Shown: piece by piece, positions 5,760 through 45,960 of the stretch | Position numbering within the stretch: the first letter of the stretch is position 1 | Layout of the letters: each line of letters opens with the position of its first letter | IMG/VR virus record: IMGVR_UViG_3300023440_000003 | Coordinates: 15,588-79,587 of that record | Origin: a virus | Reading direction: 5' to 3' (one strand) | Length of the DNA stretch: 64,000 nt | Notes under the pieces: model-generated | Database searches by the model: none | Seen by the model: only the letters and a program-made list of their open reading frames with translations | What the model was told of the DNA's origin: nothing | Program-made: the position numbers and the translations under genes

Positions 5760-8700
5760 TTATGGCCTCTTAGGTTCAAAAGGTTTAATATTGGATATTA
5801 TATTTTCCATACTGGCTTGTTCTGGTTTAAATTCATCTATGTTTGTTACTGGCACACTTAAGAGACCTGTTTCTAGATTCATCGAAAATAATCCTCTGTA
5901 GCTTCCACCATATTTCATTGGTGATATATCTAATCGAATTTGTCCTTTGCCTGGCTTTTTTGTAATAGTGTATTTATCTGGTGCGCCACTTGCCGTTATA
6001 AATTGTTGTAATTTTCTCTTTATCATATCTCTAGCTTCGTCGATAGTTCGTTTTTTCTTTAAATAGCCTATGACATAAAAACCTCTTCCTCCTGAGAATC
6101 TAACTTCCACTTGTTTAATGTCTGGATCTTTTTTCATGAAATCTCTTACCTTTTTTGTTACTTCTTTGATTTGATCAAAATCTACATCAGGCCCTGGATC
6201 GATATCTACAACTAATCTATCAGTTATAGCACCAAATGATGGATGAAATTCTACAGTTCTTCTTTCAATCCAGTATTGAAAGTCTTCTGGATTGTCTACA
6301 TCTCCTTTATGTTGTTTTATTTTTATTTTTTCTTCATCTATATTACGTCTTAGTACTATCCTGGAAGGATCAAATGCTTGCATTACAATTACCTGAGGGA
6401 ATTGTTTCAATTCATTAAGAAGATTTTTTCTGATTTTTGGTTGCATATAGAGTAAGAATATATCTCTTTTGGTAAAACTACCGAATGGTGCGTCTACTAT
6501 GATATTATCCCATCTTTCTGGATCGGGAGTTTTTGATGCTACTTTTTCTATAAATTCTTTGCCCTTTTCAGGATGCCATCCTATAAAAACTGGCTGTCTA
6601 AGTGCTCCATCGGGGTATTGTCCGGCTGCTCTGATTTTTGCCACTCGACCTATATATTTTTCTGGATGTTCTGCCATATCTTTTCTTTGTTCCATTGTAA
6701 ATCCTGCACCTACTCTTCCTACCACGGGCCCGTTAGGTTCGAAAGAGTATTCTATACCTCCAGCATATTTGCCTCTCCAGTTTGGAGAAGAGGATTCAAA
6801 GATACCTACTACATAAACATCATATTCAGGTTTGAATTTTGCTTTTACAGGTTTTTCTACATCTTCGAGATTTTGTATTACTATACCTTCTTTAGATTCA
6901 GGTATGGATCCGGTACGTATTGCATCAAAAAGCATTTGCTTTTCTTCTTTGGTAAACGCTGCTTGTGGAGGTTCTGCATAAGGAAAGTGTTGAACGAATT
7001 CATTAATCAGCCTTAGTTTTTCTTTGTAAGGTAATTCTTTTTCTACATATTGGTCTTTAAATTTTACAACATCAAATACCGTAAGGCGGGGCTGGACTTT
7101 TTTGCTTTCAATAAGTTTTCTACTTATTGGAGTCTCGCTATGGGTAACACTTACTATTTCATTAATTGGTTTAGCCTGTCCTTTTTCATCTGTAAGAAAA
7201 AGTTCGGCTCTGAATATACTTCCTTTGAATGATGAAGGCACTTTGAATTTTCCATAAGGAGGAACTTTATATGTATGTTCTATTAATCCCGTACTTGTGC
7301 TTACAGCCCATCTTGGTGAAAAGAGCTTGACTTTACCATCTGGTTTTACATAAAGAAGAACTTGTACACCATCATCTTTTCTGGTAAATATGTATCTATC
7401 ATCATTTAGGAATCTTTTAATTGCTTCTTCTGGAGTTATTTCTTTGTATTTTTCTTTACCTTCCGGAAGGTCCAGTAGTTTATCTCTGGTATCGGTAACA
7501 TTTATCATGTACCAGTTATCACCTTGACCTTTAGTTAACAGGTATTCTTGAGTTTCATTTGCTCGATATATGTTGAATCTTATATGAGAATCATCTGCAC
7601 TTAAGATGTCAGCTTTACCTCTGAACTCTATGGTTACTGTTCCTGCACCATAGTATCCATCAGGAATGCGTCCTGAAAAATTCATATAGTCCATTGTGTG
7701 ATCTGGTTGTCTTATGAATAATCGACGTTCTCCTGGCATAGGCCAGTATCTTCCCGCCCAACTGTAAGCTATTTTTGTTTTAGGATCTCCAAGTCTGAAA
7801 TCGAGGTGGCTATTCGATACAAGCAAACTGCCTGCAAAGTAATTATGATTATCTTCTACTTCAATATCATATCGTTCTAGTGGTTTTGACGGATTTACTT
7901 TTATATACTTTATCTCTCTGATAGGTACAGGCAATAAGGTCATTTCATTATGCGTTGCAGCTGTCCAGTTGTAATATCCTATTTCATCTAAAGGACATTT
8001 ATATTCCATGCCTTTAGCGATGTAAGGAGCTACTAATTTTAGGAATCTTTCTATACTTTTTTTCCTGTTTATGGAAATATAGTAGTAGGTTTTGCCGTTA
8101 GGATAAGTTCTATTTCTTAGAGTAGCGTGGATTTCGTATTTTTCTCGTAGCCATGTAATAATAAGTTGTACATCTTCTTTAGGAAAGCCGAGAGTGTGTA
8201 AGAGTATTTGCTGATGCGGACTAATTCTTTTTCCTCGGTCTGATCTAGGTCTACGTTTGTATCGAGCTGAATGTTTAATAACATAGTCGCCTCCCGGAAC
8301 ATATTGACCATCATCCATATACCATACTGCTAATGCTCTTTCGTCTATCATATCTAATATTTCCTTAGTGATACGTTTCTTGCCGTCTTTGTATAAGATA
8401 TTTCTGAGTAGATAAAACCATGGATGTTTTATTCTGAAATAGTAATAGTCTTGTCTTTTGCCTTTACCTTGTCTAATTTCGACGTCCATTTTAAACGTTG
8501 GAGAGAGAAGTTTGTAACCAAAATCGAAATACTCTTTGTTGACTTGTCCCCAATTGAATGTCCAAGGAGTAGTCTGCGGAATAGACCCATCACCTAATAG
8601 CGCACCTAAGATAAATTGTTTTTGATCTTCTGTTAAATTTTGCACAGGCATCAACATATAATCCCCTTTACGAACATCTTTAGCCAGTTTTGGGATAATT

Positions 8701-9191
8701 TTTCCATCCACATATACATACACTTTATGGTTTCCTGTCAGTGTTATTGACCCACGTCTCGAGTGGAATCTAAGTCTTATCCATTCAGTGGATGTTCCAT
8801 TTTTATACCAGTTAACCACCCTTTTCCATTCCAGTTTACCTGTTCTAAAATTGTAGCTTAGGACTTTTATAGGTAGACGTTTGTTGACTATTTCTTGAAT
8901 TCTTATTCTTCCCTTGTCAGTGATAATTCGTGTGCCTCCCGTCAAACATCCAGCACGTTTAGCATTATGCTTTTGAATGACGCATTCCCATTCTACTGGC
9001 GGATCATCAGGTCCAAGTTTTATAGTCGGAATTGGGGATTTTTGTTCAAAATTTATAATTCCAGTTATAGCAGTATCATTGTATCTGGATTGTGCTCTCT
9101 GTATTAATTTATCCGCTTCTTGCAATAATGGGTCTTCAAGTACAGCCAGATTGTTTAGATTTTCCGCTATTTTAGTTAATTTTTTCCACAT
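5760..9191 (-). CDS. ligD: LigD-like NHEJ enzyme (phosphoesterase, ATP-dependent ligase/OB, primase-polymerase), intein-containing
   Basis: Phosphoesterase: VIQKHNAKRAG/SHLDFRL, DHTMDY, GYYGAG. Ligase: RKDDG, VFDVV, EGIVI, KAKFK. OB: GRVGAGF, LRQPVF. Polymerase: VEFHP, DRLVVDIDP, SGGRG, IRLD. Confidence 0.9.
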   Translation of the reverse strand: MWKKLTKIAENLNNLAVLEDPLLQEADKLIQRAQSRYNDTAITGIINFEQKSPIPTIKLGPDDPPVEWECVIQKHNAKRAGCLTGGTRIITDKGRIRIQEIVNKRLPIKVLSYNFRTGKLEWKRVVNWYKNGTSTEWIRLRFHSRRGSITLTGNHKVYVYVDGKIIPKLAKDVRKGDYMLMPVQNLTEDQKQFILGALLGDGSIPQTTPWTFNWGQVNKEYFDFGYKLLSPTFKMDVEIRQGKGKRQDYYYFRIKHPWFYLLRNILYKDGKKRITKEILDMIDERALAVWYMDDGQYVPGGDYVIKHSARYKRRPRSDRGKRISPHQQILLHTLGFPKEDVQLIITWLREKYEIHATLRNRTYPNGKTYYYISINRKKSIERFLKLVAPYIAKGMEYKCPLDEIGYYNWTAATHNEMTLLPVPIREIKYIKVNPSKPLERYDIEVEDNHNYFAGSLLVSNSHLDFRLGDPKTKIAYSWAGRYWPMPGERRLFIRQPDHTMDYMNFSGRIPDGYYGAGTVTIEFRGKADILSADDSHIRFNIYRANETQEYLLTKGQGDNWYMINVTDTRDKLLDLPEGKEKYKEITPEEAIKRFLNDDRYIFTRKDDGVQVLLYVKPDGKVKLFSPRWAVSTSTGLIEHTYKVPPYGKFKVPSSFKGSIFRAELFLTDEKGQAKPINEIVSVTHSETPISRKLIESKKVQPRLTVFDVVKFKDQYVEKELPYKEKLRLINEFVQHFPYAEPPQAAFTKEEKQMLFDAIRTGSIPESKEGIVIQNLEDVEKPVKAKFKPEYDVYVVGIFESSSPNWRGKYAGGIEYSFEPNGPVVGRVGAGFTMEQRKDMAEHPEKYIGRVAKIRAAGQYPDGALRQPVFIGWHPEKGKEFIEKVASKTPDPERWDNIIVDAPFGSFTKRDIFLLYMQPKIRKNLLNELKQFPQVIVMQAFDPSRIVLRRNIDEEKIKIKQHKGDVDNPEDFQYWIERRTVEFHPSFGAITDRLVVDIDPGPDVDFDQIKEVTKKVRDFMKKDPDIKQVEVRFSGGRGFYVIGYLKKKRTIDEARDMIKRKLQQFITASGAPDKYTITKKPGKGQIRLDISPMKYGGSYRGLFSMNLETGLLSVPVTNIDEFKPEQASMENIISNIKPFEPKRP
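7812..8948 (-). mobile_element. Intein (379 aa) with LAGLIDADG homing endonuclease in the LigD phosphoesterase domain
   Basis: Starts CLTGGTRI; block B LTGNHKV; ILGALLGDG and LAVWYMDDG; ends YDIEVEDNHNYFAGSLLVSN followed by Ser+1. Confidence 0.92.
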
Positions 9192-18332: not shown

Positions 18333-18341
18333 TCTTTCATA

Positions 18342-18611
18342 CCAGGGAGGATCCCAGTAGTCCCCCTTGGCCGGGGGGCTCGGGGCACTACGGGTCTAGC
18401 CCCACCCCGCCCGTGGCCCTGAGAATCCTGGGATCGAAGAGGCTGTATGAGTAGGAGGGGCGCCCGGTAGGGGGTAGCCTCTCCGCTGCCCTGCGGTAGG
18501 TCCCACCTACCGCAGGGAAGGCTGACTGGGGACCCGGGACCCGGTCAGCCCAGGGTCAGCGTCGGACCGGCCTGGTCCACCGGTGGCGCTGACTTGGAGT
18601 TTTTTTTTTTT
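18342..18611 (+). ncRNA. Unassigned highly structured ncRNA
   Basis: GC-rich intergenic island in an AT-rich genome; at least six stems whose G-U wobbles favour the + strand; ends in 12 T. Confidence 0.75.
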
Positions 18612-18653
18612 AGCTATTATTTTATTTTAGACTTTTGATAAAATAGCTAAAAA

Positions 18654-25670: not shown

Positions 25671-25699
25671 TTGCACTGTGGTTATTAGACTGGTATAAT
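25671..25699 (+). promoter_or_regulatory. Sigma70-type promoter TTGCAC-17-TATAAT with extended TG
   Basis: Near-consensus boxes and spacing. Confidence 0.65.
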
Positions 25700-30017: not shown

Positions 30018-31268
30018 TCAATTTGCATTTGTACACAAAATTAATACTTTATCTGGATACTTTGAATGTCTAAACACTAATATTTGAACAAATCCTGATA
30101 TATTTCGTGGGGTTAGTATTATTTTTTGAGTTTTGGGGTTAAGTTTCTCTAAAAGTGCACTTATCTTTCTATACAAGGCTATATATTCTGTGGTTGACCC
30201 CAGTAACCTGAAGCCTTTATTATATAGCTTTTTGATAAGATTTCTTAAATCGTCCTTATATTTGTATTGTATTATTGCTATGTTTATATCTGGCTTATTT
30301 ATTTCAGCATTCTCGAAGAATCTGTCGTATAGGTGAATGGTATGTCGACCATAAAGTTCAACGCCAGCACTTTTTGCTGCCCATAATATAGGGTTTATGT
30401 ATCCATAATAACCGTTCTTTTTATTATGGTCTCTTTCTTTATCTAAAAATACAGCAGCTTTTTTGGATAATGATCTGGGAAGTTTTAACATTACTTTATC
30501 GTCAGTTTTTACGAAATATAATCCAAGAAATTTGAATTCCTCATTTTTCCTTATTGGTGTGATACGGATCTTAAATTTATAACGTCCAAATACAGACTTA
30601 ATGTAGTTTATGATTTTTTCATCACTTAAACTAGATTGAACTCCTATTAAAAAATCATCAGCATATCTGAATGTCACCATCGATAGCGATCTATTATATG
30701 CTTTTGTAATCACATTAAGTCTGTAAGTTAAGCCCGTAGTAAGTATTCCGGCAAGTATAGGTGATGTAGGTAATCCATAAGGGATATGACCATTTATGAA
30801 ACAATACGTTTTAATTACGTCTATGAATCTATCTATATCCATACCTAACTGCAACTTATTTACCTTAGCTATAAAATTTATTGAATCGTCCAATGCGACG
30901 TCATAAGTTTCATATAATTTTTTTGGGAGAACATATTTATATAGGTCTAATCTGTCAGGAGTTATTGATTCGAAGTAATTTATTACATCCACTTTAAAAA
31001 ATCTTCTGTCATCTTGCAGTATATGAAAGAGTTGTAGGAATTTTTGGCCTGAATGTACTGATGAGATAGCGAAATCAGTACAGTTAGTTTCGACATATTT
31101 TAGATATATGATGTAGTGTGTACTTAGAGTGTTATGCAAAATTTTTAGAACTTTTTCGTAAGGACCTAACGGTATATATATTTTTTTAAACTTATCTTTC
31201 TTCTTTATTTGTCTGACTCTATACACTTTGGGTATTTCTTTCTTGAAAATTTTTGTTTCAAACTCCAT
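30018..31268 (-). CDS. Reverse transcriptase, retron-like/unclassified
   Basis: KVDVINYFESI, IPYGLPTSPIL, FRYADDF, FLGL; strong SD AGGAGGTG. Confidence 0.88.
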   Translation of the reverse strand: MEFETKIFKKEIPKVYRVRQIKKKDKFKKIYIPLGPYEKVLKILHNTLSTHYIIYLKYVETNCTDFAISSVHSGQKFLQLFHILQDDRRFFKVDVINYFESITPDRLDLYKYVLPKKLYETYDVALDDSINFIAKVNKLQLGMDIDRFIDVIKTYCFINGHIPYGLPTSPILAGILTTGLTYRLNVITKAYNRSLSMVTFRYADDFLIGVQSSLSDEKIINYIKSVFGRYKFKIRITPIRKNEEFKFLGLYFVKTDDKVMLKLPRSLSKKAAVFLDKERDHNKKNGYYGYINPILWAAKSAGVELYGRHTIHLYDRFFENAEINKPDINIAIIQYKYKDDLRNLIKKLYNKGFRLLGSTTEYIALYRKISALLEKLNPKTQKIILTPRNISGFVQILVFRHSKYPDKVLILCTNAN

Positions 31269-31289
31269 GCATCACCTCCTTTTCTACTT

Positions 31290-31314
31290 CTTATATCTCT
31301 AAATATGCTAAAAT
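31290..31314. promoter_or_regulatory. Back-to-back promoters: AGATATAAG (-, RT) and TGCTAAAAT (+, RNAP)
   Basis: Both motif classes occur in the 56-nt divergent gap. Confidence 0.55.
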
Positions 31315-31324
31315 GTTCAAAGAA

Positions 31325-34300
31325 ATGGTCAAGGAATTCATTCAATTTGTCAAGTCAGTATTTCCGATAGCCACACAGAATCGTGAGATTAAACTGGATA
31401 ATGTCTATACAGATGCTTCCAAAATACCCGATGTATCTGATTATCAAATCCAAAAAAGATACAGACTTGAAGGCCGAAGTTTAAGTGTACCGGTTTATGC
31501 AGATTTTACTCTGTATGAAAAAGGCAAAGTTGTTGCTAAAGCACAGAAGTTGCTAATCGCTCGCGTACCGTTAAAACTTCCTAGAGGAACTTATCTGTTT
31601 AAGGGTAATGAGTTCTTTGTTGCAAATCAGCTTCGTTTGAAGCCAGGAATTTATGTCAGAATTAGAGAAAACGGAGAAGTGGAGGCCCATTTCAATTTAG
31701 CTAAGTGGACTTTTAAAGCTTATTTTAATGGAAGTAAAGTTTATGCTAAGTTCACAAGAGGTCCTGCTATACCTTACTATACATTACTGAAGCTATTTGG
31801 TGCTTCTGAAGATGAGATTAAAAATGCATTTGGCGAACTATATAATGAGAACATTTTATATGACGAAGATGCTATTCTTGGGTGGTATCGTGCATATTAT
31901 GGAGAAGGTACTAAGGAAGAAGCTGTAAAAACATTCAAAAGTATATTATCCTCCGGTTACAGGTTTGATCCGGAAATTTCCAGGCATCTTTTAAATATAG
32001 AAGCATCAAACATTAATAAAGATGTCCTGCTTGCAGCTTTAAAAAAACTTATCGCAGTACGGAGAGGTGAGAAAGAACCTGATGATAGAGATGCTTTGTT
32101 TTTTAAACAGCTATTGGAAGAAAGCGATATATTAAGTGAACATTTTCATAATATGAAATCAAAAGTTATTTTTAAAATACGAAGAAATCTAGTATTAAAA
32201 GACAAAATAAGAGATATTGTTCCTATAGCTGTATTTCAGAGTGTTGTAGACAATGTTTTTACTAAAGATCTTGTAAATCCTTTAAAGCAAACAAATCCAG
32301 TAACCATTGCAGAAAACAATTCCAGAGTAACTATTTTTGGAGAAGGAGGTATTAAGTCAGAATATGCAGTGCCTTATCAGGCTAGAGCACTTAATCCGTC
32401 GCATTTTGGTATTGTAGATCCAGTAAGGACTCCAGAATCTTCAAAGGTAGGGGCTGTATTATTTAGAACAATTGGAGCTGGTAAAGATCCGAAGACTGGT
32501 CTACCAGCAACTGAAGTTTTAGATGTGAAAACAGGAAAGCTTAAACGGATAACATCAACTGAATTTTTTAATTCAAGGGTTGCTTTTCCTGACCAAATTA
32601 AAGAAGTAAAAAATGGTAAGGTAGTTTTTAAGAACAAGTCTCAGGTAAAAATACTATACCGTGGAAATATTGAAATAGTTCCTGCATCTAAAGTGGATTA
32701 TGTTGTGCCTAACTACATGAATGTTTTTACTGTTTCGACCCTATTTTTACCTTTTTTACAATCATTACACCCTAACCGTGCTTCTAAAGCAGCAAACACC
32801 ATAACACAAGCACTTCCATTAAAATACAGGGAACCTCCTTTGGTCCAAAGCGCAATATCAGAAAATTTATCTATGGTGGATATTGTAGGCAGGCAATATT
32901 CAGTGAGATCTCCTGTGGATGGAGAGATAAAATCGGTTAAGAATAATGTGATAGTCATCAAAGATAAAAAAGGAAAAGAGCATAAAATATCTTTAGCTGA
33001 TTATCTTCCATTGAACCAAAATAGTTTCATCTCTATGGAAATTAAAGAAAATATAAAACCTGGCGTAAAGGTAAAAAAGGGAGATTTGCTGGCAGATACT
33101 AATTTTACAAAAGATGGTCAGTTGGCGTTAGGAGTGAATGCTATTACTGCTTTAATGCCGTTCAAACATTTAAATTTTGAGGATGGTATTGTGGTATCAG
33201 AGTCTTTTGCTAAAAAGCTTACTTCTCAACGTTTATTTCACTTTCGTTATCCTTTAGGTTCTGATGTAAAAATTGACAAAGAACTTTATCGATCACTTTA
33301 TCCTCATGAATTACTTGAAGACAATTATAAAAAGTTGGATGAGGATGGAATAATAAAGAAAGGAGCAGTAGTTAAAGATGGTGATATATTAATAGCGGGC
33401 TTAGTAAAAAAGAAGGAAAGTAAAATAGACGAAATAATTGCTCGGTTAAACAGACGTTTAGTTCAACCCTGGGTAAAAAAGCCATTAATTTGGGATAAAG
33501 AGTTTGATGGCATAGTAAAAGACGTAATTAAGACAAAACAGTTTATATCTATAACTGTTCTTACTGAAGAACCAGCAATAGTTGGAGACAAATTGACAAA
33601 CTCTCATGGTTCAAAAGGAGTCATTGTGCACATAATTCCTGATGATCAAATGCCTAAACTTCCGGATGGTCGAACTGTAGAGGTAATCATAAATCCTGTC
33701 TCTATTCTTGGAAGAAATAATCCATCTCAGGTTTATGAAATGGTAGCTGGAAAAGTAGCTGAAAAACTAAAACAGCCTTTAAAAATTCCAGCATTTGGAG
33801 TAGATGACACTCATAAGTTATTAAAAAATCTCACCAAACAATATGGGGTTTCGGATACTGAAACTTTAATTGATCCAGTTACCGGAAAGAAAATCCCCAA
33901 TGTTATGGTTGGTCCTATGTACATTTATAAACTGGAACATCAAGTAGAAGAAAAAATGTCAGCCAGATACAAAGGAGCCTATGATCAGTGGGATATGACT
34001 CCAGCAAAAGGTGTTGATGAACCTGGACAGGCTGTAGGGCTTATGGAAATATATGCTTTATTGGCTCATGGTGCAGGAAATGTATTAAAAGAAATGGCTA
34101 CATGGAAGTCAGAGCGTAATCCTTTATTCTGGGAGGCCATAGAAAATAACTTACCTCCTCCGCCCCCAAAGACTACATTTGTTACTAAAAAATTCGAGAA
34201 CTTATTGAGAGCTGCTGGAATTGATGTAAAAAAAGAAGGGCATCTCGTAAGGATAATGCCACTTACTCAAAGCCAGGTTAAATCTCTCACACAAAATCGT

Positions 34301-37300
34301 TTCATAAAAAATGCCAAGATGGTAGTAGCTGGTACTTTAAAAGAAGAAAGTGGTGGTCTTTTTGATCCAGAACTAACTGGTGGTTTACGTGGAGATAAAT
34401 GGGCTGCTATTAAGTTACCGGATAAGTTACCTTCACCTATCGTATTGCGTGTGTTTAGCTTATTATTGAATATGAAAGAAAAAGATATTAAAGATATAAT
34501 TCTTGGTGTTAAAAAAATTCAGGGAATGTCTGGTTCTGAAGCTATTCTCAAACTGTTAAAGTCTAAATCTTTAGACGAATATTTGAAGCAAGCTCAGGAT
34601 ATGGCTGACGTAGCTAAGCGGTCTAATAATTTGAACGAGTTAAATAAAGCTAACTTGATTATACGTTTTATAAAATACATGAAGGAGAATAACATTAAAT
34701 GGGAGGAATTCTTTCTCGATCGCTTGCCGGTACTCCCTCCTCAATTCCGTCCTGTGTATGTTGATAAACATAACAGGTTATTTCATTCAGATTTTAATCT
34801 TGTATACAGAGATATTAAATTACTGGCGGACCAGATCCAGAGAGCAAAGCAGGAAGGTTTACCTGAAGACGAGATTAACAAAATGAAGAAAGATTTATAT
34901 GAATCTATTGAAATTCTGTATGGTCTGGCGGATCCTTCTTCTAGATATTATGGTAAACGTAAACCCAGAGGAATACTTGACTACATTCATGGACCAAAAC
35001 CTAAAGAAGGTTACTACCAGCACAAAGTACTCCGTAAAACTCAGGATTTATCTGGACGCTCTGTTATTGTTCCTAATCCTGGCCTCCATCCAGATGAAAT
35101 CGGTATCCCAGAGGAAATGGCGTGGAAGATATTTGAACCTTTTATTTTAGCTAAACTTAAATCAGAGTTTGCTATGTCTCCTGCTGAAGCAAGGATCGAA
35201 CTGGCTAATCGAGGTGATAAGGCCAGAAAAGCTTTGGAATTGGTCGCCAGCGAACGGTTAGTTATTGTTAATCGCGCACCTTCACTTCATAAATACAATA
35301 TGCTCGCTTTTAAACCTAAAATTGTTCCAGGACATGCTATACATTTTCCAAACGTCGTAGTATCTATGCAAAGTGGTGATTACGATGGCAACTCGTTAGC
35401 TGGTGATGAATATGTGATTTATTCGTTGAAAGATGAAATATATTTTCGTCCTATTAAAGACTTTCCTAGGGAAGATTCTCCGTACAAGATTAGTAAAAGA
35501 GGTGTTAAATATTTTAAAGTTCCACCAGGCATCAAGGTTCTTGCCTATGATTATAATACAAACACCTTGAAGTGGGATAAGGTCAGTAGTTTTAGTGAAC
35601 ATCCAGTTCAGAAAGTTTATAAAGTTAAGACTTATCATGGAGCTTCGGCTGTAGTTACTGGAGATCATTCTTTACTTGTTTTTGATCCAAGAGATTATAC
35701 TTTCAAACGTATGTCTCCTTTGGAGATAATGCGTAATAAAAACAGGCGTTTTTTTGTGGTCAGACCTAAGAAAATTCGTCCTCTCGTAGAGGTTCCGCGT
35801 ATAAAATTAGGCGATTTGGAGTTAGATTTGGATTTTGAACTTGGTTATTTAATTGGATGTTATGTTGGGGATGGTTGGGTTGACAATCGGAATGGTTTTT
35901 ACATTGCTAGTATGGATAACGGAATTTACGGTAAGCTTAAAAGACTAATAAAGCGGAAATTTAATGTGGCTATGAAAGCTAGAAAAGCTGTAACCAAGAT
36001 TTTTAAGGGTTATGAAGCAACTTCTAGAAAGTTATACGCTAATTTACCTAAGGAATTCAGACGATTTTTAAAAGAAAATTGTGGAAGCAAAGCTAGTGAT
36101 AAAAAATTACCTTCTCCTATTTACTTTTGTTCGCCTGTTATTTTCAGATTAGGATTATTATCTGGTTTACTTGATACGGATGGTACAGTGCATCAATCTT
36201 CTGAAGGTAGGTTCACTATCCTTTATAATACTATTTCTGAAGTTTTAGCAGATGAAGTTAGAATATTAGCTCTTAGTCTTGGTATCAGATCTACGATTAA
36301 AAAGGTTAAGAATACAGATGGTGTTGAGTATTTTCAGATTATATTTTCCTGCAAGGATTTAGCTGAAGCTGTTTTTGGAAAAGGTATACACCTTAGACTA
36401 TATCATACAAAGAAAAAGAAGATTCTGAGTAAGCTTTTTGAAGTAAAGCGAGATAAACGTTTCAATGGCAGTTTGTTCAATATTGTTCCTATATCTGAAG
36501 AGTTAATATATCTTTTGAATTATTCATATCGAAAAGGTTCTAGATTTTCAGCTGATTTCATCTTAGATACTATTAAGCGTGAATACGTTCCGAAGGAAAT
36601 GATATCTTCTATATTACATAATGTTCATCCTAGACATGAACATTTAAAAAAACAGTTCGAGTTACTTAAAGCTTTTATAGAGACAGATGATGTATGGTTT
36701 GATTTTATTACAGAAGTCATTCCGCAGCAGGAAGTTCCTACCTATGATTTAACTACAGAATCTAAGACTTTTCTGTGTGGTATAGATTTCATAGTTTATG
36801 ATACTACTGCAATACATGTTCCAGTAACTCAAGAAGCTCTGCAGGATGCAGTAAAGCTTTTACCTTCTCAGAATTGGCTTCATGAGGGGCGTCCTAAAGA
36901 AATATGGCTTACGCCAAAGATTGAAGCAATATGGGGGCTCTATAAAATAACCCGAGACGGAAAAGATAAAAGCAAACAGTTTAAATTCAATAATGTAGAT
37001 GATGCATTACGTGCTTTTCACAGAGGTGATATTGACATTACGGATACTGTTGTGATTAATAATCAAAAAACTACTTTAGGTAGAGCCTTAGTTAACCGTA
37101 TTTTACCTAAAGATTTCAGAGATCCTAATATTAAACTAGACAAAACCACTATAAATAAATTGATGCGGAATATTTTTGAAAAATATGGCGGTAAAGAAGG
37201 TGCCAGGGTTGCAGGAGAATTGAATAAACTTGGAGGAGATTTTGCTTATCTTATCGGATTTAAATTGTCTTTAGATGATTTTAGTCCTAAATTTGAGGAT

Positions 37301-38845
37301 TTATTGGACAAAGCGTTTGTAGAATCGCTTAAAACTAAAGATCCATCAAAAATTAACCGTAAGGCTATGGAGCTGCGTCAAAAAATAATGAAGTCTTTAA
37401 TGAAGCAGGATGATAACACTTTGGTACAATTAGTTAAATCCGGTACACGCGCTAAAAAAGATTCCTTAATGCAACTTTTAGCTTCGCCAGTACAGCTTGC
37501 TGATGTATATGATCGTCCAATTCCTGTAATAGTTCCAAGAGGATATGCTAAAGGTATGGACACTATTGATTACTTATTTGCTTCTTATGGTGCTAGAAAA
37601 GGAGCGATAGAAAAAACAGTTAAAACAGGGGAACCTGGAGAGCTTTCAAAAGAACTTGTTGCTGCAGCGATAGATTATGTAATAACTATGGAAGATTGTG
37701 GAACTAGAAAAGGAATCGTTATGGATGTGGATAAGGCAGATGCTTTAAACAGAGCTTTAGCAGAAAATGTGGTTAAAAATGGTAAGATTATTGCAAAACG
37801 TAATGAGATAGTTGATGGTAAAGTATATGAAAAACTCAAAGAATCAGGAGTGAAACAGGTAAAGGTAAGATCACCTTTGACATGTGAAGCCCCTGATGGT
37901 ATATGTGTGTTATGTTATGGTGCTAAACCTGATGGCACAATGCCTCATATAGGAGAATACGTAGGAATTAAGAGTGCACAGTATTTAAGTGAACCTGTAA
38001 CACAGATGACTATATCTTCTGTACATACTGGTGGACTTGTTAAAGATATGGGCACTTCTTTTCAGGATATTAGAGCCGTAATGGAAATGAGTAATGTGCC
38101 TGCTAGAGCCACGGTTGCTAAAGTTGCTGGCAAAGTAGAAAAAATTGTGAAACGGCCAGAAGGCGGATATGAAATAATAATAGATGGAAAATCTCATATC
38201 ACTTCTCCATGGGTTGAACCTAAAGTTAAAGAAGGAGATGAAGTAGCCAAGGGTGATATTTTAACTACTGGTTTACCCCATCCAAAAGATATCTATGATG
38301 CCGCAGGCTTGGAAGCTGCACGTAATTTTGTAGTGAATTATCTTGATACTGCTTATCAACAAAATGGTATGAAGTTAGACAGGCGTCATTTTGAAATTAT
38401 AGGCAAAGTTATGTTTGATACAGCTGTTGTTACTGATCCTGGTGACACGGATTTAGTTCCCGGAGATTACGTTAAAATTAATAAACTCAAAGCTTTAAAC
38501 GCACAGATGCCTCCAGAAATAGACGTATCTTTAGAAGACGCAGCAGGTAGAATCTTGGCAACTCCTGTAGATAAATATCCTGCAGGTACTAAGTTAACTT
38601 CTGAGATAATAGATGATTTAAGAAAGAAAAAAATAAAAACCGTAAAAGTTAGAAGCAAGCCAGCATCATTCAAACCCGTAGTTAAAGGTATAGAACAATT
38701 GCCATTGCTTCGTGATGATTGGCTTACAAGAATGGCTTATAGAGATATTAAAAATACTGCTATAGAAGGGGCTCTACGTTCATGGAGTTCTGACTTACAA
38801 GGCTACAGTCCGATACCAAAATTAGTGTATGGAGAGACTCCATGA
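31325..38845 (+). CDS. rpoBC: Fused beta/beta-prime multisubunit-type DNA-dependent RNA polymerase, intein-containing
   Basis: Beta: NQLRLKPG, RTPES, NFEDGIVVSE, GDKLTNSHGSKG, YKLEH..EKMSAR, GLMEIYAL. Beta-prime: GGLFD, LPVLPP..RP, SGRSVI, NRAPSLH, DYDG, RSPLTC, EPVTQ..HTGG, RHFEII. Start is 31325 or 31313. Confidence 0.95.
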   Translation: MVKEFIQFVKSVFPIATQNREIKLDNVYTDASKIPDVSDYQIQKRYRLEGRSLSVPVYADFTLYEKGKVVAKAQKLLIARVPLKLPRGTYLFKGNEFFVANQLRLKPGIYVRIRENGEVEAHFNLAKWTFKAYFNGSKVYAKFTRGPAIPYYTLLKLFGASEDEIKNAFGELYNENILYDEDAILGWYRAYYGEGTKEEAVKTFKSILSSGYRFDPEISRHLLNIEASNINKDVLLAALKKLIAVRRGEKEPDDRDALFFKQLLEESDILSEHFHNMKSKVIFKIRRNLVLKDKIRDIVPIAVFQSVVDNVFTKDLVNPLKQTNPVTIAENNSRVTIFGEGGIKSEYAVPYQARALNPSHFGIVDPVRTPESSKVGAVLFRTIGAGKDPKTGLPATEVLDVKTGKLKRITSTEFFNSRVAFPDQIKEVKNGKVVFKNKSQVKILYRGNIEIVPASKVDYVVPNYMNVFTVSTLFLPFLQSLHPNRASKAANTITQALPLKYREPPLVQSAISENLSMVDIVGRQYSVRSPVDGEIKSVKNNVIVIKDKKGKEHKISLADYLPLNQNSFISMEIKENIKPGVKVKKGDLLADTNFTKDGQLALGVNAITALMPFKHLNFEDGIVVSESFAKKLTSQRLFHFRYPLGSDVKIDKELYRSLYPHELLEDNYKKLDEDGIIKKGAVVKDGDILIAGLVKKKESKIDEIIARLNRRLVQPWVKKPLIWDKEFDGIVKDVIKTKQFISITVLTEEPAIVGDKLTNSHGSKGVIVHIIPDDQMPKLPDGRTVEVIINPVSILGRNNPSQVYEMVAGKVAEKLKQPLKIPAFGVDDTHKLLKNLTKQYGVSDTETLIDPVTGKKIPNVMVGPMYIYKLEHQVEEKMSARYKGAYDQWDMTPAKGVDEPGQAVGLMEIYALLAHGAGNVLKEMATWKSERNPLFWEAIENNLPPPPPKTTFVTKKFENLLRAAGIDVKKEGHLVRIMPLTQSQVKSLTQNRFIKNAKMVVAGTLKEESGGLFDPELTGGLRGDKWAAIKLPDKLPSPIVLRVFSLLLNMKEKDIKDIILGVKKIQGMSGSEAILKLLKSKSLDEYLKQAQDMADVAKRSNNLNELNKANLIIRFIKYMKENNIKWEEFFLDRLPVLPPQFRPVYVDKHNRLFHSDFNLVYRDIKLLADQIQRAKQEGLPEDEINKMKKDLYESIEILYGLADPSSRYYGKRKPRGILDYIHGPKPKEGYYQHKVLRKTQDLSGRSVIVPNPGLHPDEIGIPEEMAWKIFEPFILAKLKSEFAMSPAEARIELANRGDKARKALELVASERLVIVNRAPSLHKYNMLAFKPKIVPGHAIHFPNVVVSMQSGDYDGNSLAGDEYVIYSLKDEIYFRPIKDFPREDSPYKISKRGVKYFKVPPGIKVLAYDYNTNTLKWDKVSSFSEHPVQKVYKVKTYHGASAVVTGDHSLLVFDPRDYTFKRMSPLEIMRNKNRRFFVVRPKKIRPLVEVPRIKLGDLELDLDFELGYLIGCYVGDGWVDNRNGFYIASMDNGIYGKLKRLIKRKFNVAMKARKAVTKIFKGYEATSRKLYANLPKEFRRFLKENCGSKASDKKLPSPIYFCSPVIFRLGLLSGLLDTDGTVHQSSEGRFTILYNTISEVLADEVRILALSLGIRSTIKKVKNTDGVEYFQIIFSCKDLAEAVFGKGIHLRLYHTKKKKILSKLFEVKRDKRFNGSLFNIVPISEELIYLLNYSYRKGSRFSADFILDTIKREYVPKEMISSILHNVHPRHEHLKKQFELLKAFIETDDVWFDFITEVIPQQEVPTYDLTTESKTFLCGIDFIVYDTTAIHVPVTQEALQDAVKLLPSQNWLHEGRPKEIWLTPKIEAIWGLYKITRDGKDKSKQFKFNNVDDALRAFHRGDIDITDTVVINNQKTTLGRALVNRILPKDFRDPNIKLDKTTINKLMRNIFEKYGGKEGARVAGELNKLGGDFAYLIGFKLSLDDFSPKFEDLLDKAFVESLKTKDPSKINRKAMELRQKIMKSLMKQDDNTLVQLVKSGTRAKKDSLMQLLASPVQLADVYDRPIPVIVPRGYAKGMDTIDYLFASYGARKGAIEKTVKTGEPGELSKELVAAAIDYVITMEDCGTRKGIVMDVDKADALNRALAENVVKNGKIIAKRNEIVDGKVYEKLKESGVKQVKVRSPLTCEAPDGICVLCYGAKPDGTMPHIGEYVGIKSAQYLSEPVTQMTISSVHTGGLVKDMGTSFQDIRAVMEMSNVPARATVAKVAGKVEKIVKRPEGGYEIIIDGKSHITSPWVEPKVKEGDEVAKGDILTTGLPHPKDIYDAAGLEAARNFVVNYLDTAYQQNGMKLDRRHFEIIGKVMFDTAVVTDPGDTDLVPGDYVKINKLKALNAQMPPEIDVSLEDAAGRILATPVDKYPAGTKLTSEIIDDLRKKKIKTVKVRSKPASFKPVVKGIEQLPLLRDDWLTRMAYRDIKNTAIEGALRSWSSDLQGYSPIPKLVYGETP
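35393..36802 (+). mobile_element. Intein (470 aa, Ser1, C-terminal Asp, Thr+1) with LAGLIDADG endonuclease in the RNAP catalytic loop
   Basis: SLAGDEYV start; block B VTGDHSL; LIGCYVGDG and LSGLLDTDG; ends TYDLTT..TFLCGIDFIVYD; flanks align to NADFDGDQMAVHVP. Confidence 0.9.
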
Positions 38846-39891
38846 AGATAAGGGTTGCAGAGATTATCTTAGTAGATACACGCAAGGGTAAATTAAAGGT
38901 AAAGTGTCTTGATAACGAAGAGTTATTCACCATCACCAGAATGGCTGTGATACTTGGATCTTCTAATTATTATTCTGGTTTTTTTAAATATCCAGAGAAG
39001 GGCGATAGAGTGCTGTTATTAGAACAGGAAAATGATCCTGATCCTGTTATCTTACCAATATTTGTACCTGAATCTAGGATAATGTTCGAAGATGAAGATA
39101 ATGAATTTTATCTTGTGGAATTGCTTCATTTAATAAACAATCTGGATGCTCAGCCAGGAGATTATGTGATTTATGGAAAAAATGATAATTATGTAATAGT
39201 TCGGGCGAACGGTAATATTATCTTTAAGACTGGCTTTACTAAAGTATTAATGTCCGCTTCCATTAATATAGGAGGTTTTTATACTGATGCTATGAATTTT
39301 ATATTTAGAAGCCATTTAGGTTTATTTGCGTTGAAATTACTTTATAATAGAAACGTTGGACCTTCAGCTATTTTTGAAATCAATCAGCCTCCCAATTTAT
39401 CTGGCGATTCTCCACTTGTTGCATTTAAGGCTGGCAATACTATAAAGAACTTTTTAAGCTTTGAACTTGATAGAAATGACGGAAGTATTAGGTTGTATTC
39501 TGATAGTTTTACTATTAAAATAGATTCTGATGGTAATCTAGAATATGAAACTGAAGGGAATAATAAAGTGATTATTCGTCAGAATCTAGATCATACTATT
39601 GAAGGCAAAGCCGATTTAAGAGTTAAACAAGATATATCTACTCAGGTATCTGGAAATGCATCTATTCAAACGTCAGGAGACATGAATATTAAAAGTAAGG
39701 AACTGGTTATACAAGTTACAGGTGATGCTGTGATCAAAGCCACCAATGCTATAGTGGATGCAACTACTGTTACCCTAGGGAAATCGCCTCAATCGCCTAT
39801 AGTTACGGGATTTCCTGATGGAACTATGCCAGTGTGTTATGTTACCGGAGCTCCAATACAGGGAAGTACTACATGTAAGGCAGGAAAATGA
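38842..39891 (+). CDS. Baseplate spike (gpV/gp5-like)
   Basis: N-terminal OB-fold pattern (YPEKGDRVLL) and C-terminal beta-helix repeats (IEGKA, VSGNA, TSGDM, VTGDA). Confidence 0.7.
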   Translation: MKIRVAEIILVDTRKGKLKVKCLDNEELFTITRMAVILGSSNYYSGFFKYPEKGDRVLLLEQENDPDPVILPIFVPESRIMFEDEDNEFYLVELLHLINNLDAQPGDYVIYGKNDNYVIVRANGNIIFKTGFTKVLMSASINIGGFYTDAMNFIFRSHLGLFALKLLYNRNVGPSAIFEINQPPNLSGDSPLVAFKAGNTIKNFLSFELDRNDGSIRLYSDSFTIKIDSDGNLEYETEGNNKVIIRQNLDHTIEGKADLRVKQDISTQVSGNASIQTSGDMNIKSKELVIQVTGDAVIKATNAIVDATTVTLGKSPQSPIVTGFPDGTMPVCYVTGAPIQGSTTCKAGK

Positions 39892-43568: not shown

Positions 43569-44393
43569 GTGATTAGATTACCTTGCATACGTTTCATAGC
43601 GGCTTCATTAATTTTATTTGATGATATAGAACAATGTAAAGAGTTTCTTGTACAGAATTACGTTCCTTTACCTCCGGATGATAAATTACAAAAATTGAAT
43701 GAAGTAGTGAAAGGCTCTTCAAAACGATTGACAAAGACTCAAAAAATAAAACTTCTGAAAGAAAAGAAAATGCCAGAATTTGCAAGGTATTTTATAAAGG
43801 GTGAAATAGACATGGAGCCTGATTTTGATGAGCTCTTACACGTGCAGCAAAGTTTTAATATAAGAATACCACTTCAAGCTTTTTTGATGACCAAAGACCC
43901 TGACATGTTGAAATTAAGTCCTTTTGAGGTTTCTGAAAAAACACGTGAACTTTATAAATTCTATTTATTTGACATAGAAAAGATGAGATTAAAAGACTGG
44001 ATAGTTTATCTTAAGTTACTGTATGAATTATTTCCTACGGATGCCAAATTGCTACTTATGCTTAAGAAAGGAGAAACTTTCTTATTTAAAAGGCACTTCA
44101 AACACTATTTGAAGATAAGTATGGATGATGTAAATATGGAGCTTAATAGTACTGCTGTTACAGTATTTCGCTTGTTAAGTGAACAGATTATTAAACAGGA
44201 TGAATATGGAAATTTATACCTTGAAATGAAGCCAGAAGTTTTTAGGGAGGCTAGATTATGGGCTAATTTACTTATTAATTCTATGAAGGTATTCAGAGAA
44301 CAACTGACAGGAGAACAGATACCAGAAAAAGTGGAATTAGTGCCACATGAATATGATATACCCACATTAAAAAGATTAATAGATGGGAAGTAA
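43569..44393 (+). CDS. Hypothetical protein, terminase small subunit candidate
   Basis: Directly upstream of and overlapping terL; helical; start reassigned to GTG 43569. Confidence 0.4.
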   Translation: MIRLPCIRFIAASLILFDDIEQCKEFLVQNYVPLPPDDKLQKLNEVVKGSSKRLTKTQKIKLLKEKKMPEFARYFIKGEIDMEPDFDELLHVQQSFNIRIPLQAFLMTKDPDMLKLSPFEVSEKTRELYKFYLFDIEKMRLKDWIVYLKLLYELFPTDAKLLLMLKKGETFLFKRHFKHYLKISMDDVNMELNSTAVTVFRLLSEQIIKQDEYGNLYLEMKPEVFREARLWANLLINSMKVFREQLTGEQIPEKVELVPHEYDIPTLKRLIDGK

Positions 44394-45918
44394 CAAACCA
44401 GTACAGCTTCGCAGAAGCGATCTTGTTGCAAGTCTTATATATATCGGAGGAAAGCCTTTTGATTTTAAAAATAGAGAATATTTAATACCTATTTATGATA
44501 CATTTAGGCCGGTTGTATTAAAAGGTGGTAGACAGATTGAAAAAAGTACTTTGCTTGCTGTGATTATGATTATTGACGGAATAAGTCATGATTTTTTCAA
44601 TTCGTTATATGTGAGTTATACTCAAAAACAGGTATCATTTTTTTCTAATTTACGTTTCGATCCTATAGCGTCATACTCTCCTTACATAAAATCTCATTTC
44701 TATACCGGCTCAAATCTAATAAAAAGGGTTGGTGATAAAACTTTTCGCAATGGTTCTGCGTTCTTTTTTAGATCAATGTATTCACATCATACAGCAGAAT
44801 CTATAAGAGGATTAAGCGCTGATAGAATATGTTTCGATGAGGTTCAAAGTCTCGATCCTAGAGGAATGTCTATAGTGGAGGAATGTATGTCCCACTCACC
44901 GTATAAATATGTAATATATGCAGGTACAGCAAAATCTCCTCAGAATGAAATAGAACGTATGTGGAATATGTCGACTCAGATTGAGTATATGATCAAATGT
45001 GAAGCATGCAACCACTGGAATTATCAGGATGAGAAAATAATAGGCAAAAACAGTTATATATGCAGTAGATGTGGAAAGCCTATAGATATGAGAAATGGTA
45101 CTCTTGTTATGATGGGAGATAAATATGCGCCATACTTTGGAATGCGTATCACTCAGATGCAGGCTCCTTTTGTAAGTTTTGATGAAATAAAACTTAAATA
45201 TGAACGTATGCCATTATATCTGTTCTATAATGAAGTCCTGGGTCTTCCTTATGAATTTGCAGAACGCCCCATCAGTTTAAGAGAACTGCAGGCTTGTTGT
45301 GTTGATAGAGATTTCATAGAGTCTTCTACTCTTGTAGGTAGAACTGTAGCTGCGGGAATAGATTGGGGAGGCGGTACCAGATCTTTTACTGAGGTGGTTA
45401 TAGGAGAATTTATAAATGGTAAGTACAAAGTCTATTATGTGCATAGATTAAAAGTAGCAGATCCTATTGAGCAGGTGGATTTTCTATCTAGATTGCTGAA
45501 GACTTATAAAGTCAGAATTGCCGTATGTGATATGGGTTTTGGTGACATGAAAGTACAGGAGCTTAGAGCTCTAACTGGCATTCCAGTTATTGGTTGTTAT
45601 TATTCATCTACTAAAGTCAGAAGCATTATATATAAAGAAAAAGAAAATATGATCCATGTAAATAGAACCTGGGCCTTAAGTGAAGTATTTCGTCTTTTGA
45701 AACGTAGAAGGTTTGAATTTCCCAGATATTCTATAATGGCAGAATTTTTTGAAGAAATCCTGAACGTAACAACTGAGGTACATCAAGTTCAGGGGCAAGA
45801 TACAATTATGTATATTCACGATGCCGAACATCCAGATGATTTTCTTCATGCGCTGAATTATTTTAAAATAGCCTGCGATTATAAAAAATTCGTTGACAAT
45901 CTTAACATAGTGGTTTAG
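44383..45918 (+). CDS. terL: Terminase large subunit (GpA-like)
   Basis: VLKGGRQIEKST, IRGLSADRICFDEVQ, CEAC/CSRC zinc finger, NEVLGLPY, AGIDWG, DDFLHA. Confidence 0.88.
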   Translation: MGSNKPVQLRRSDLVASLIYIGGKPFDFKNREYLIPIYDTFRPVVLKGGRQIEKSTLLAVIMIIDGISHDFFNSLYVSYTQKQVSFFSNLRFDPIASYSPYIKSHFYTGSNLIKRVGDKTFRNGSAFFFRSMYSHHTAESIRGLSADRICFDEVQSLDPRGMSIVEECMSHSPYKYVIYAGTAKSPQNEIERMWNMSTQIEYMIKCEACNHWNYQDEKIIGKNSYICSRCGKPIDMRNGTLVMMGDKYAPYFGMRITQMQAPFVSFDEIKLKYERMPLYLFYNEVLGLPYEFAERPISLRELQACCVDRDFIESSTLVGRTVAAGIDWGGGTRSFTEVVIGEFINGKYKVYYVHRLKVADPIEQVDFLSRLLKTYKVRIAVCDMGFGDMKVQELRALTGIPVIGCYYSSTKVRSIIYKEKENMIHVNRTWALSEVFRLLKRRRFEFPRYSIMAEFFEEILNVTTEVHQVQGQDTIMYIHDAEHPDDFLHALNYFKIACDYKKFVDNLNIVV

Positions 45919-45960
45919 TTTGGGTATTGAACATATGAATATGCTAAAATTGACTTGACT

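Follow-up and report, generated by a model that had tools for sequence, protein, structure and literature searches.

A streamlined single-chain beta/beta-prime RNA polymerase encoded by a phage

Cellular RNA polymerases (RNAPs) assemble their beta and beta-prime subunits by way of an alpha dimer. Can a phage carry both subunits as one polypeptide, and what partners would such an enzyme need? The question is raised by a long open reading frame (ORF) at positions 31,325 to 38,845 of the DNA analysed here (the window), which is the final 64 kb (64,000 nucleotides, nt) of one linear, metagenome-derived virus record of 79,587 bp, IMG/VR IMGVR_UViG_3300023440_000003. The record is estimated by CheckV to be ~44% complete, with ~56% of the genome missing; no terminal repeats and no tRNAs were found on this contig. 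An initial annotation, made from the sequence alone, had read the ORF as a streamlined fusion of beta and beta-prime. The observation of a single-chain beta/beta-prime ORF is confirmed, and the results below support its being a genuine streamlined polymerase of the phage.

The open frame extends from 31253 to 38845 on the + strand and closes with a TGA at 38843-38845. There are two candidate starts, ATG 31313 (giving 2510 amino acids, aa, the database form P0002) and ATG 31325 (2506 aa); residues are counted here from the latter. Pfam places Rpb2 domains 3, 6 and 7 at residues 320-930 and Rpb1 domains 1, 2, 3 and 5 at residues 1063-2265, i.e. seven Rpb1/Rpb2 families, with LAGLIDADG_3 and Intein_splicing between Rpb1 domains 2 and 3. 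This order of domains within one ORF bears out the claim that beta motifs continue into beta-prime motifs without a stop. The parts of the gene are the following.

31325..38845, + strand: ORF of the single-chain RNAP precursor, 2506 aa (open frame, Pfam domains)
31325..34228, + strand: beta module, residues 1-968 (Pfam Rpb2_6, PF00562, E 1.1e-54; Thermus beta 62/88-1099; Foldseek)
33584-33619, + strand: GDK...SKG motif of the second barrel, in the beta module
34217..34264, + strand: fusion point, where the last beta strand and the first beta-prime strand form one hairpin (residues 965-980)
34229..35392, + strand: beta-prime N-terminal module, residues 969-1356 (E. coli beta-prime 178-464; Pfam Rpb1_1 and Rpb1_2)
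34352..34417, + strand: site of the deleted zinc-binding domain, a four-residue connector standing in place of a four-Cys module
34787..34924, + strand: beta-prime clamp helices (coiled coil), retained (alignment to Thermus aquaticus beta-prime; hairpin H597-617/H622-640 of the model)
35378-35392, + strand: Mg loop DYDGN, the third Mg-binding Asp replaced by Asn (AAC, 35390-35392)
35393..36802, + strand: intein, 470 aa, residues 1357-1826 (Pfam, motifs, comparison with intein-free relatives)
35651-35680, + strand: intein block TxxH (TGDH)
35840-35881 and 36149-36190, + strand: the two LAGLIDADG motifs of the intein
36803..38842, + strand: beta-prime C-terminal module, residues 1827-2506 (alignment to Bacillus subtilis beta-prime; Pfam Rpb1_3 and Rpb1_5)
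37694-37714 and 37871-37921, + strand: second zinc site (Zn2) of beta-prime, its cysteines kept

Alignments to known chains define the fusion closely. Residues 39-968 align to bacterial beta, reaching residue 1099 of the 1119-residue Thermus chain, and residues 969-1025 align to residues 2-57 of Thermus aquaticus beta-prime. The junction thus lies at residue 968/969 (DNA ~34229), where the initial annotation had put it (near 34230), and beta is fused head to tail to beta-prime without a linker. Residues 560-1356 were modelled with AlphaFold on the basis of 52 family sequences; the model has a mean predicted local distance difference test score (pLDDT) of 90.3 and a predicted template modelling score (pTM) of 0.80. 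It shows the junction as a hairpin of two strands (E407-412 and E415-420 of the model, pLDDT 83-94) in addition to the clamp-helix hairpin, and its top Foldseek matches are bacterial beta chains. The beta barrel with the GDK...K motif (Rpb2 domain 6) is present, the GDK/SKG lysines lying at residues 754-765. On the other side of the junction, the N-terminal module of beta-prime also aligns to bacterial beta-prime chains other than that of E. coli. The C-terminal module is collinear with residues 456-1161 of the 1199-residue Bacillus subtilis beta-prime and includes the bridge-helix/trigger-loop region (Pfam Rpb1_5, E 2.8e-28; collinear with Bacillus beta-prime 707-1104).

The chain is trimmed at several places. 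Four residues separate GGLFDPELTGG from KWAAIKL at the point where bacterial beta-prime has its four-Cys module; the model has a short confident loop there and then a strand. The N-terminal zinc-binding domain of beta-prime, already reported as deleted, is indeed absent by alignment to bacterial chains, both here and in 120/120 relatives inspected, and only ~99 residues of the phage protein match E. coli beta-prime 1-178. Beta lacks its first ~50 residues as well, and the lineage-specific insertions are missing. Once the intein is taken out the protein would be 2036 aa long, against 2749 aa for E. coli (beta 1342 + beta-prime 1407, which agrees with the ~2750 of the initial annotation) and 2392 aa for Bacillus subtilis beta + beta-prime (PDB chain lengths).

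The intein is located in the Mg-binding loop of beta-prime, at a point where intein-free relatives have DFDGD joined straight to T-M-A-V-H-V-P. It has the features of a class 1 intein, i.e. an N-terminal Ser (Ser1), a block B TxxH, two LAGLIDADG motifs and a Thr as +1 residue. In Pfam, LAGLIDADG_3 is matched at E 8.5e-15 and Intein_splicing at 30.1 bits, under its 35.8 cut-off.

The fused form is widespread. A word-indexed search returned at least 473 clusters (1378-4386 aa, on contigs of up to ~200 kb), mostly of ~2000 aa without an intein or ~2500 aa with one. When a 220-residue query spanning the junction was searched against 1.84 billion representatives (clusters at 50% identity), 945 clusters were found at E <= 1e-10; in each of the best 150 of the 945 the match ran unbroken across the junction. 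The junction sequence is conserved in 120/120 aligned relatives; the closest relative (P0003) is 53% identical. On the sequences compared, the zinc-domain deletion and the seamless junction are a trait of the family and not a local oddity. Cultured phages belong here too, namely Salmonella phage Arash (OQ632216.1) and Vibrio phage D69. Gp206 of Arash (1525 aa) is beta plus the front of beta-prime, aligned in one piece across the junction, and Gp216 (606 aa) is the remaining beta-prime; together they are collinear with the ORF studied here, and D69 has the same layout. No description of the fused form was found: neither the Arash paper nor the mReC phage study (PMC7481178), a jumbo-phage comparative paper, a 2020 review or a 2026 review has one. 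The polymerase of this phage, with its intein and its D-D-N triad, is a somewhat aberrant member of a large and essentially undescribed variant of bacterial-type phage RNAP.

Within the family, four genomes (G001, G002, G004 and G007, behind loci L028, L029, L047 and L054) as well as Arash and D69 have the fused gene in a secondarily split or interrupted form. The open frames that bear the beta barrel in split relatives are 1257, 1488, 1525 and 1546 aa long, and in the genomes of two relatives the beta-barrel match is itself in two pieces, which suggests further insertions.

The partners of the enzyme were sought in 12 near-complete relatives of 160-216 kb, eight of them at least 93% complete and Arash and D69 among them. 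Each has exactly one beta locus, as does the present contig. Pfam matches to sigma-70 region 3 were obtained in 10 of the 12 and to region 2 in 7, so that every one of the 12 has at least one of the two; Gp10 of Arash matches Sigma70_r3 above the Pfam cut-off. The alpha N-terminal domain (PF01000, PF01193) was found in 0/12, and omega (PF01192) in 0/12 above cut-off. PF01000 has no match in the whole 79.6-kb contig either. The suggestion that the enzyme may not need alpha is strengthened to this extent by the near-complete relatives, and by analogy with them it is probably independent of both alpha and omega; use of the host alpha is nevertheless possible, and that part of the suggestion stays qualified.

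Sigma calls for more care. The contig was searched with Pfam regions 2 and 4 over six frames, with Pfam on 20 ORFs at E 0.1, with hidden Markov models (HMMs) derived from 15 sigma-like ORFs that relatives carry, again over six frames, with hhalign against all ORFs of 120-520 aa, and in ESM Atlas. The statement that no alpha or sigma gene is recognisable holds over all 79.6 kb, for Pfam sigma and alpha domains and for the family sigma profiles alike. The only weak candidate to recur, at contig positions 8148-9095 (E 0.097; hhalign probability 2.5%) was rejected, having no support in ESM Atlas. Since the contig is ~44% complete by estimate, the missing sigma gene is no evidence on the matter, and the hint of sigma independence that had been drawn is not sustained: the contig is a fragment, all 12 relatives have sigma-70 matches, and the clamp helices are retained. 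These helices are the main sigma-docking element of bacterial RNAP, and because they are kept a sigma partner can be argued for. By analogy with the relatives, the enzyme is very likely sigma-dependent.

Three structural genes of the contig matter for the position of the RNAP gene.

38842..39891, + strand: baseplate hub/spike-like gene, directly downstream (phrog_430, baseplate hub/tail lysozyme, E 3.8e-8, weak; phrog_9992, E 6e-7)
44383..45918, + strand: large terminase gene (TerL; phrog_675, E 2.6e-79), 5.5 kb downstream of the RNAP gene
54-1559: portal homologue, ~30 kb upstream of the RNAP gene

The overlap with a spike gene noted in the initial annotation was found again: the RNAP stop TGA (38843-38845) and the downstream ATG (38842-38844) overlap by 4 nt (ATGA), with the reserve that the phrog_430 match is weak and that Pfam gave no match for 38842..39891. 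The same-strand upstream neighbour is tail-fibre-like. Of 80 related loci, 41 have the portal gene immediately upstream of the RNAP gene and 18 have TerL downstream of it. As to the virion itself, mass spectrometry of Arash particles gave more spectra for Gp206 than for any other protein (3516, 100% coverage), the major capsid protein included, and also detected Gp216 and the sigma Gp10 (PMC10585845). The idea of a virion-packaged polymerase accordingly gains from the cultured homologue and from the position that the gene has in a morphogenesis block across the family; for the present phage it is carried by analogy, which makes a virion-borne enzyme plausible.

We therefore favour the following account, to which as a whole we give a probability of about 0.6. 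One chain would constitute the complete catalytic core of a bacterial-type RNAP, the last beta strand continuing as the first beta-prime strand. The precursor would be inactive as long as the homing-endonuclease intein splits the Mg-binding loop, and protein splicing would release the 2036-aa enzyme. By analogy with the relatives it would probably be the only RNAP of the phage. Alpha and omega would probably be dispensable, the covalent link taking the place of the alpha-dimer assembly platform, and a sigma-70-family factor encoded by the phage, binding to the retained clamp helices, would probably supply promoter specificity. Made along with the structural proteins, the enzyme would probably be built into the virion, enter with the DNA and start transcription without the host enzyme.

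Several points weigh against this account. The intein ends in Tyr-Asp, not His-Asn, and the case for splicing is made from the conservation of such endings in six other clusters. The residue preceding the intein, at the third Mg-binding Asp, is Asn, so that canonical splicing would yield DYDGN and the activity may be reduced or lost. No sigma gene was found on the contig (~44% complete) by Pfam, family HMMs, hhalign or ESM Atlas. Between the census genomes and the nearest intein-free relative of this RNAP, identity is only 31-36%. The portal gene, adjacent to the RNAP gene in 41/80 related loci, is found here at a distance of 30 kb. The authors of the Arash study caution that proteins abundant during infection may contaminate virion preparations (PMC10585845). 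Finally, the sigma-70-like extended -10 elements found upstream of phage genes, described below, could equally be used by the host RNAP.

The last two points are those of the best placed alternative, in which the polymerase is not a virion component: host RNAP with host sigma would transcribe the early genes and the RNAP gene, the fused enzyme would serve in the middle or late phase, and the Arash signal would be carry-over, as its authors themselves considered (PMC10585845). It draws on the candidate promoter of the gene.

31306..31314, + strand: extended -10-like element TGCTAAAAT, candidate promoter, ending 10 nt before ATG 31325

There is no Shine-Dalgarno (SD) sequence between this element and ATG 31325, and the same 9-mer occurs again at 45942-45950, ahead of another gene; a leaderless RNAP mRNA with this element as promoter is possible. 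On the contig, 35 of 105 gene starts have a strong SD sequence, and TAnAAT lies 4-12 nt before the start, without an SD sequence, in 8 genes (9 with the RNAP gene; control rate 2.5%). Examples of extended -10-like elements are at 18636-18644, 25691-25699, 31306-31314 and 45942-45950. Such starts hint at leaderless mRNAs made from sigma-70-type extended -10 promoters. Over the whole window the consensus TGNTAWAAT is not enriched (15 found against 16.3 expected), only the intergenic placement being suggestive. To this must be opposed the 3516 spectra of Gp206 in Arash virions, above the major capsid protein and with full coverage, the position of the RNAP gene within the portal-to-terminase block across the family, and the presence of one RNAP per genome, which therefore leaves no separate virion enzyme. 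We regard a non-virion role as improbable, though not negligibly so.

The largest intergenic gap, 18333-18653 (321 nt), is GC-rich, with a run of 12 T at its end, ahead of the element TGATAAAAT.

A crippled or dead polymerase is the next alternative, and an unlikely one: the D-D-N triad would inactivate the enzyme, or the intein with its Tyr-Asp ending would fail to splice, and the gene would be a decaying or purely structural passenger. The beta-prime Mg triad is D-x-D-x-D (NADFDGD), and the present sequence departs from it at the third position, which is Asp in 118/120 relatives. Asn in the triad is confined to intein-bearing alleles (10/46 against 0/74 for the intein-free; Fisher p = 3.5e-5, not corrected for relatedness). 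Eight of these ten alleles have DFNGD and then Ser (D-N-D, containing an Asn-Gly pair), and in the other two, that of this phage being one, D-x-D-G-N is followed by Ser or Cys; the nine alleles besides the present one are P0016, P0047, P0050, P0055, P0060, P0070, P0094, P0095 and P0097. The non-canonical C-terminus of the intein also speaks for inactivity. However, a YD or QD ending is found at the same site in six other clusters, beside an intact DFDGD, and because of this recurrence we take it for a trait of the intein subfamily rather than a defect. Inteins ending in Asp are able to splice. The 2506-codon frame is intact, and the second-barrel lysines, the clamp helices and the Zn2 site are all kept. 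General decay of the gene was ruled out: the protein deviates at 8 of the 123 columns that are at least 95% conserved, and its two nearest relatives at 8 and 6. No second RNAP was found on the contig, and a single A/G assembly error at the codon of the third Asp is possible. An exchange of Asn and Asp between the two ends of the intein was also considered and set down to coincidence, as the YD/QD endings adjoin an intact DFDGD in six clusters.

One might speculate further that the protein is a pro-enzyme under two locks, namely the intein in the Mg loop and the Asn in the triad, its activity being withheld in the producing cell and restored in the virion or in the next host by splicing plus slow deamidation, or another conversion, of the Asn. 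This we hold to be very improbable: ordinary splicing chemistry leaves the Asn as it is, and a single clade may account for the eight D-N-D sequences. As for an artefact of assembly or gene calling that joined two genes, nothing was found in its favour beyond the metagenomic origin of the record, and it can practically be dismissed, given the same junction in 120 aligned relatives and 945 clusters and the single alignment piece across it in the cultured phages Arash and D69.

How does the single-chain polymerase, as we favour it, compare with known enzymes? Its nearest described counterparts are the RNAPs of Arash and of Vibrio phages D69, D148 and D181, which have the same junction and order and are ~30% identical over the whole length; portal, terminase and helicase are also common to this phage and the Arash/D69-type phages. 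The Arash and D69 enzymes are split again inside beta-prime (around residue 1915 of the precursor), with genes between the two parts, whereas here there is one chain; on the other hand, the intein and the Asn at the third catalytic Asp distinguish this phage from them. The Arash paper labels its two proteins 'beta' and 'beta-prime' and does not mention a fusion (PMC10585845). Like the mReC phages, which are Caudovirales whose multisubunit RNAP branches deeply (Weinheimer and Aylward 2020, PMC7481178), the family has bacterial-type beta and beta-prime that can be aligned to cellular enzymes and is found in large uncultured tailed phages, and one mReC contig (149,482 bp, locus L065) is ~25% identical to the present RNAP. 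For the mReC contigs compared, however, beta and beta-prime are listed as separate genes, several contigs having two sets (PMC7481178), whereas the family described here has one fused gene and one set per genome. Going by the separate genes and by the identity of only ~25%, membership of mReC was rejected.

Among cellular enzymes, the best matches are Thermus beta (E 2.7e-74) and Bacillus beta-prime (E 1.9e-58). The clamp helices, the Zn2 site and both barrels are shared with cellular bacterial RNAP, from which the phage protein differs in being one chain, in lacking the zinc-binding domain, and in that its relatives have no alpha or omega genes. Natural rpoB-rpoC fusions exist in Helicobacter and Wolbachia, where the C-terminus of beta is joined to the N-terminus of beta-prime. 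The bacterial fusions are housekeeping enzymes of full size in which alpha and omega remain in use, unlike the trimmed phage enzyme, whose relatives' genomes have a gene for neither.

Among phage enzymes, the phiKZ/AR9-type RNAPs are likewise phage-encoded, two-barrel and without alpha or omega, and the jumbo phages concerned package one RNAP set in the virion (PMC7598289, PMC13282480). They are much more divergent and occur as two sets, each enzyme being made of four or five polypeptides, with a fifth subunit that is not of the sigma-70 type, whereas here there is one chain at one locus; none of them is among the best PDB sequence matches to this RNAP. The gp66 protein of crAss-like phages and YonO also have both catalytic barrels in one chain, and gp66 is virion-borne as summarised in PMC7481178. 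Both are too divergent for the COG and Pfam models of beta and beta-prime, whereas the present protein matches seven Rpb1/Rpb2 families.

If our account is right, the 2036-aa chain would be the smallest self-contained bacterial-type transcription machine. A single-chain RNAP would be attractive for structural work and for minimal-cell and orthogonal-expression engineering, and it bears on the real roles of alpha, omega and the zinc-binding domain. Should the polymerase be injected along with the DNA, phages of ~160-215 kb would run a programme independent of host RNAP with one sigma-dependent enzyme, a solution that would differ from those of phiKZ and N4.

A few observations concern the rest of the contig. 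Over all its predicted proteins the IVYWREL fraction is 0.415, i.e. a rough growth temperature of ~54 C. The RNAP and its four nearest relatives (P0003, P0004, P0006 and P0007) have the highest IVYWREL values of the family, 0.40-0.42 against 0.32-0.39, a hint that this branch infects moderate thermophiles. Between the portal and RNAP genes lie genes for a ligase, a helicase, a glycosyltransferase and a reverse transcriptase, together with many unannotated genes. The reverse-transcriptase-like gene (30018-31268, - strand, 416 aa) stands head to head with the RNAP gene, ~45-56 nt from its ATG, and has its own ribosome-binding site, GGAGGTG; it matches Pfam RVT_1 at E 2.5e-6, below cut-off, and also phrog_2825 and phrog_1423. 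In the ATP-dependent ligase-like ORF (5760-9191, - strand, 1143 aa), residues 185-313 match a LAGLIDADG homing endonuclease (phrog_11023, E 1.2e-13), so that this ORF may hold a second intein of the contig.

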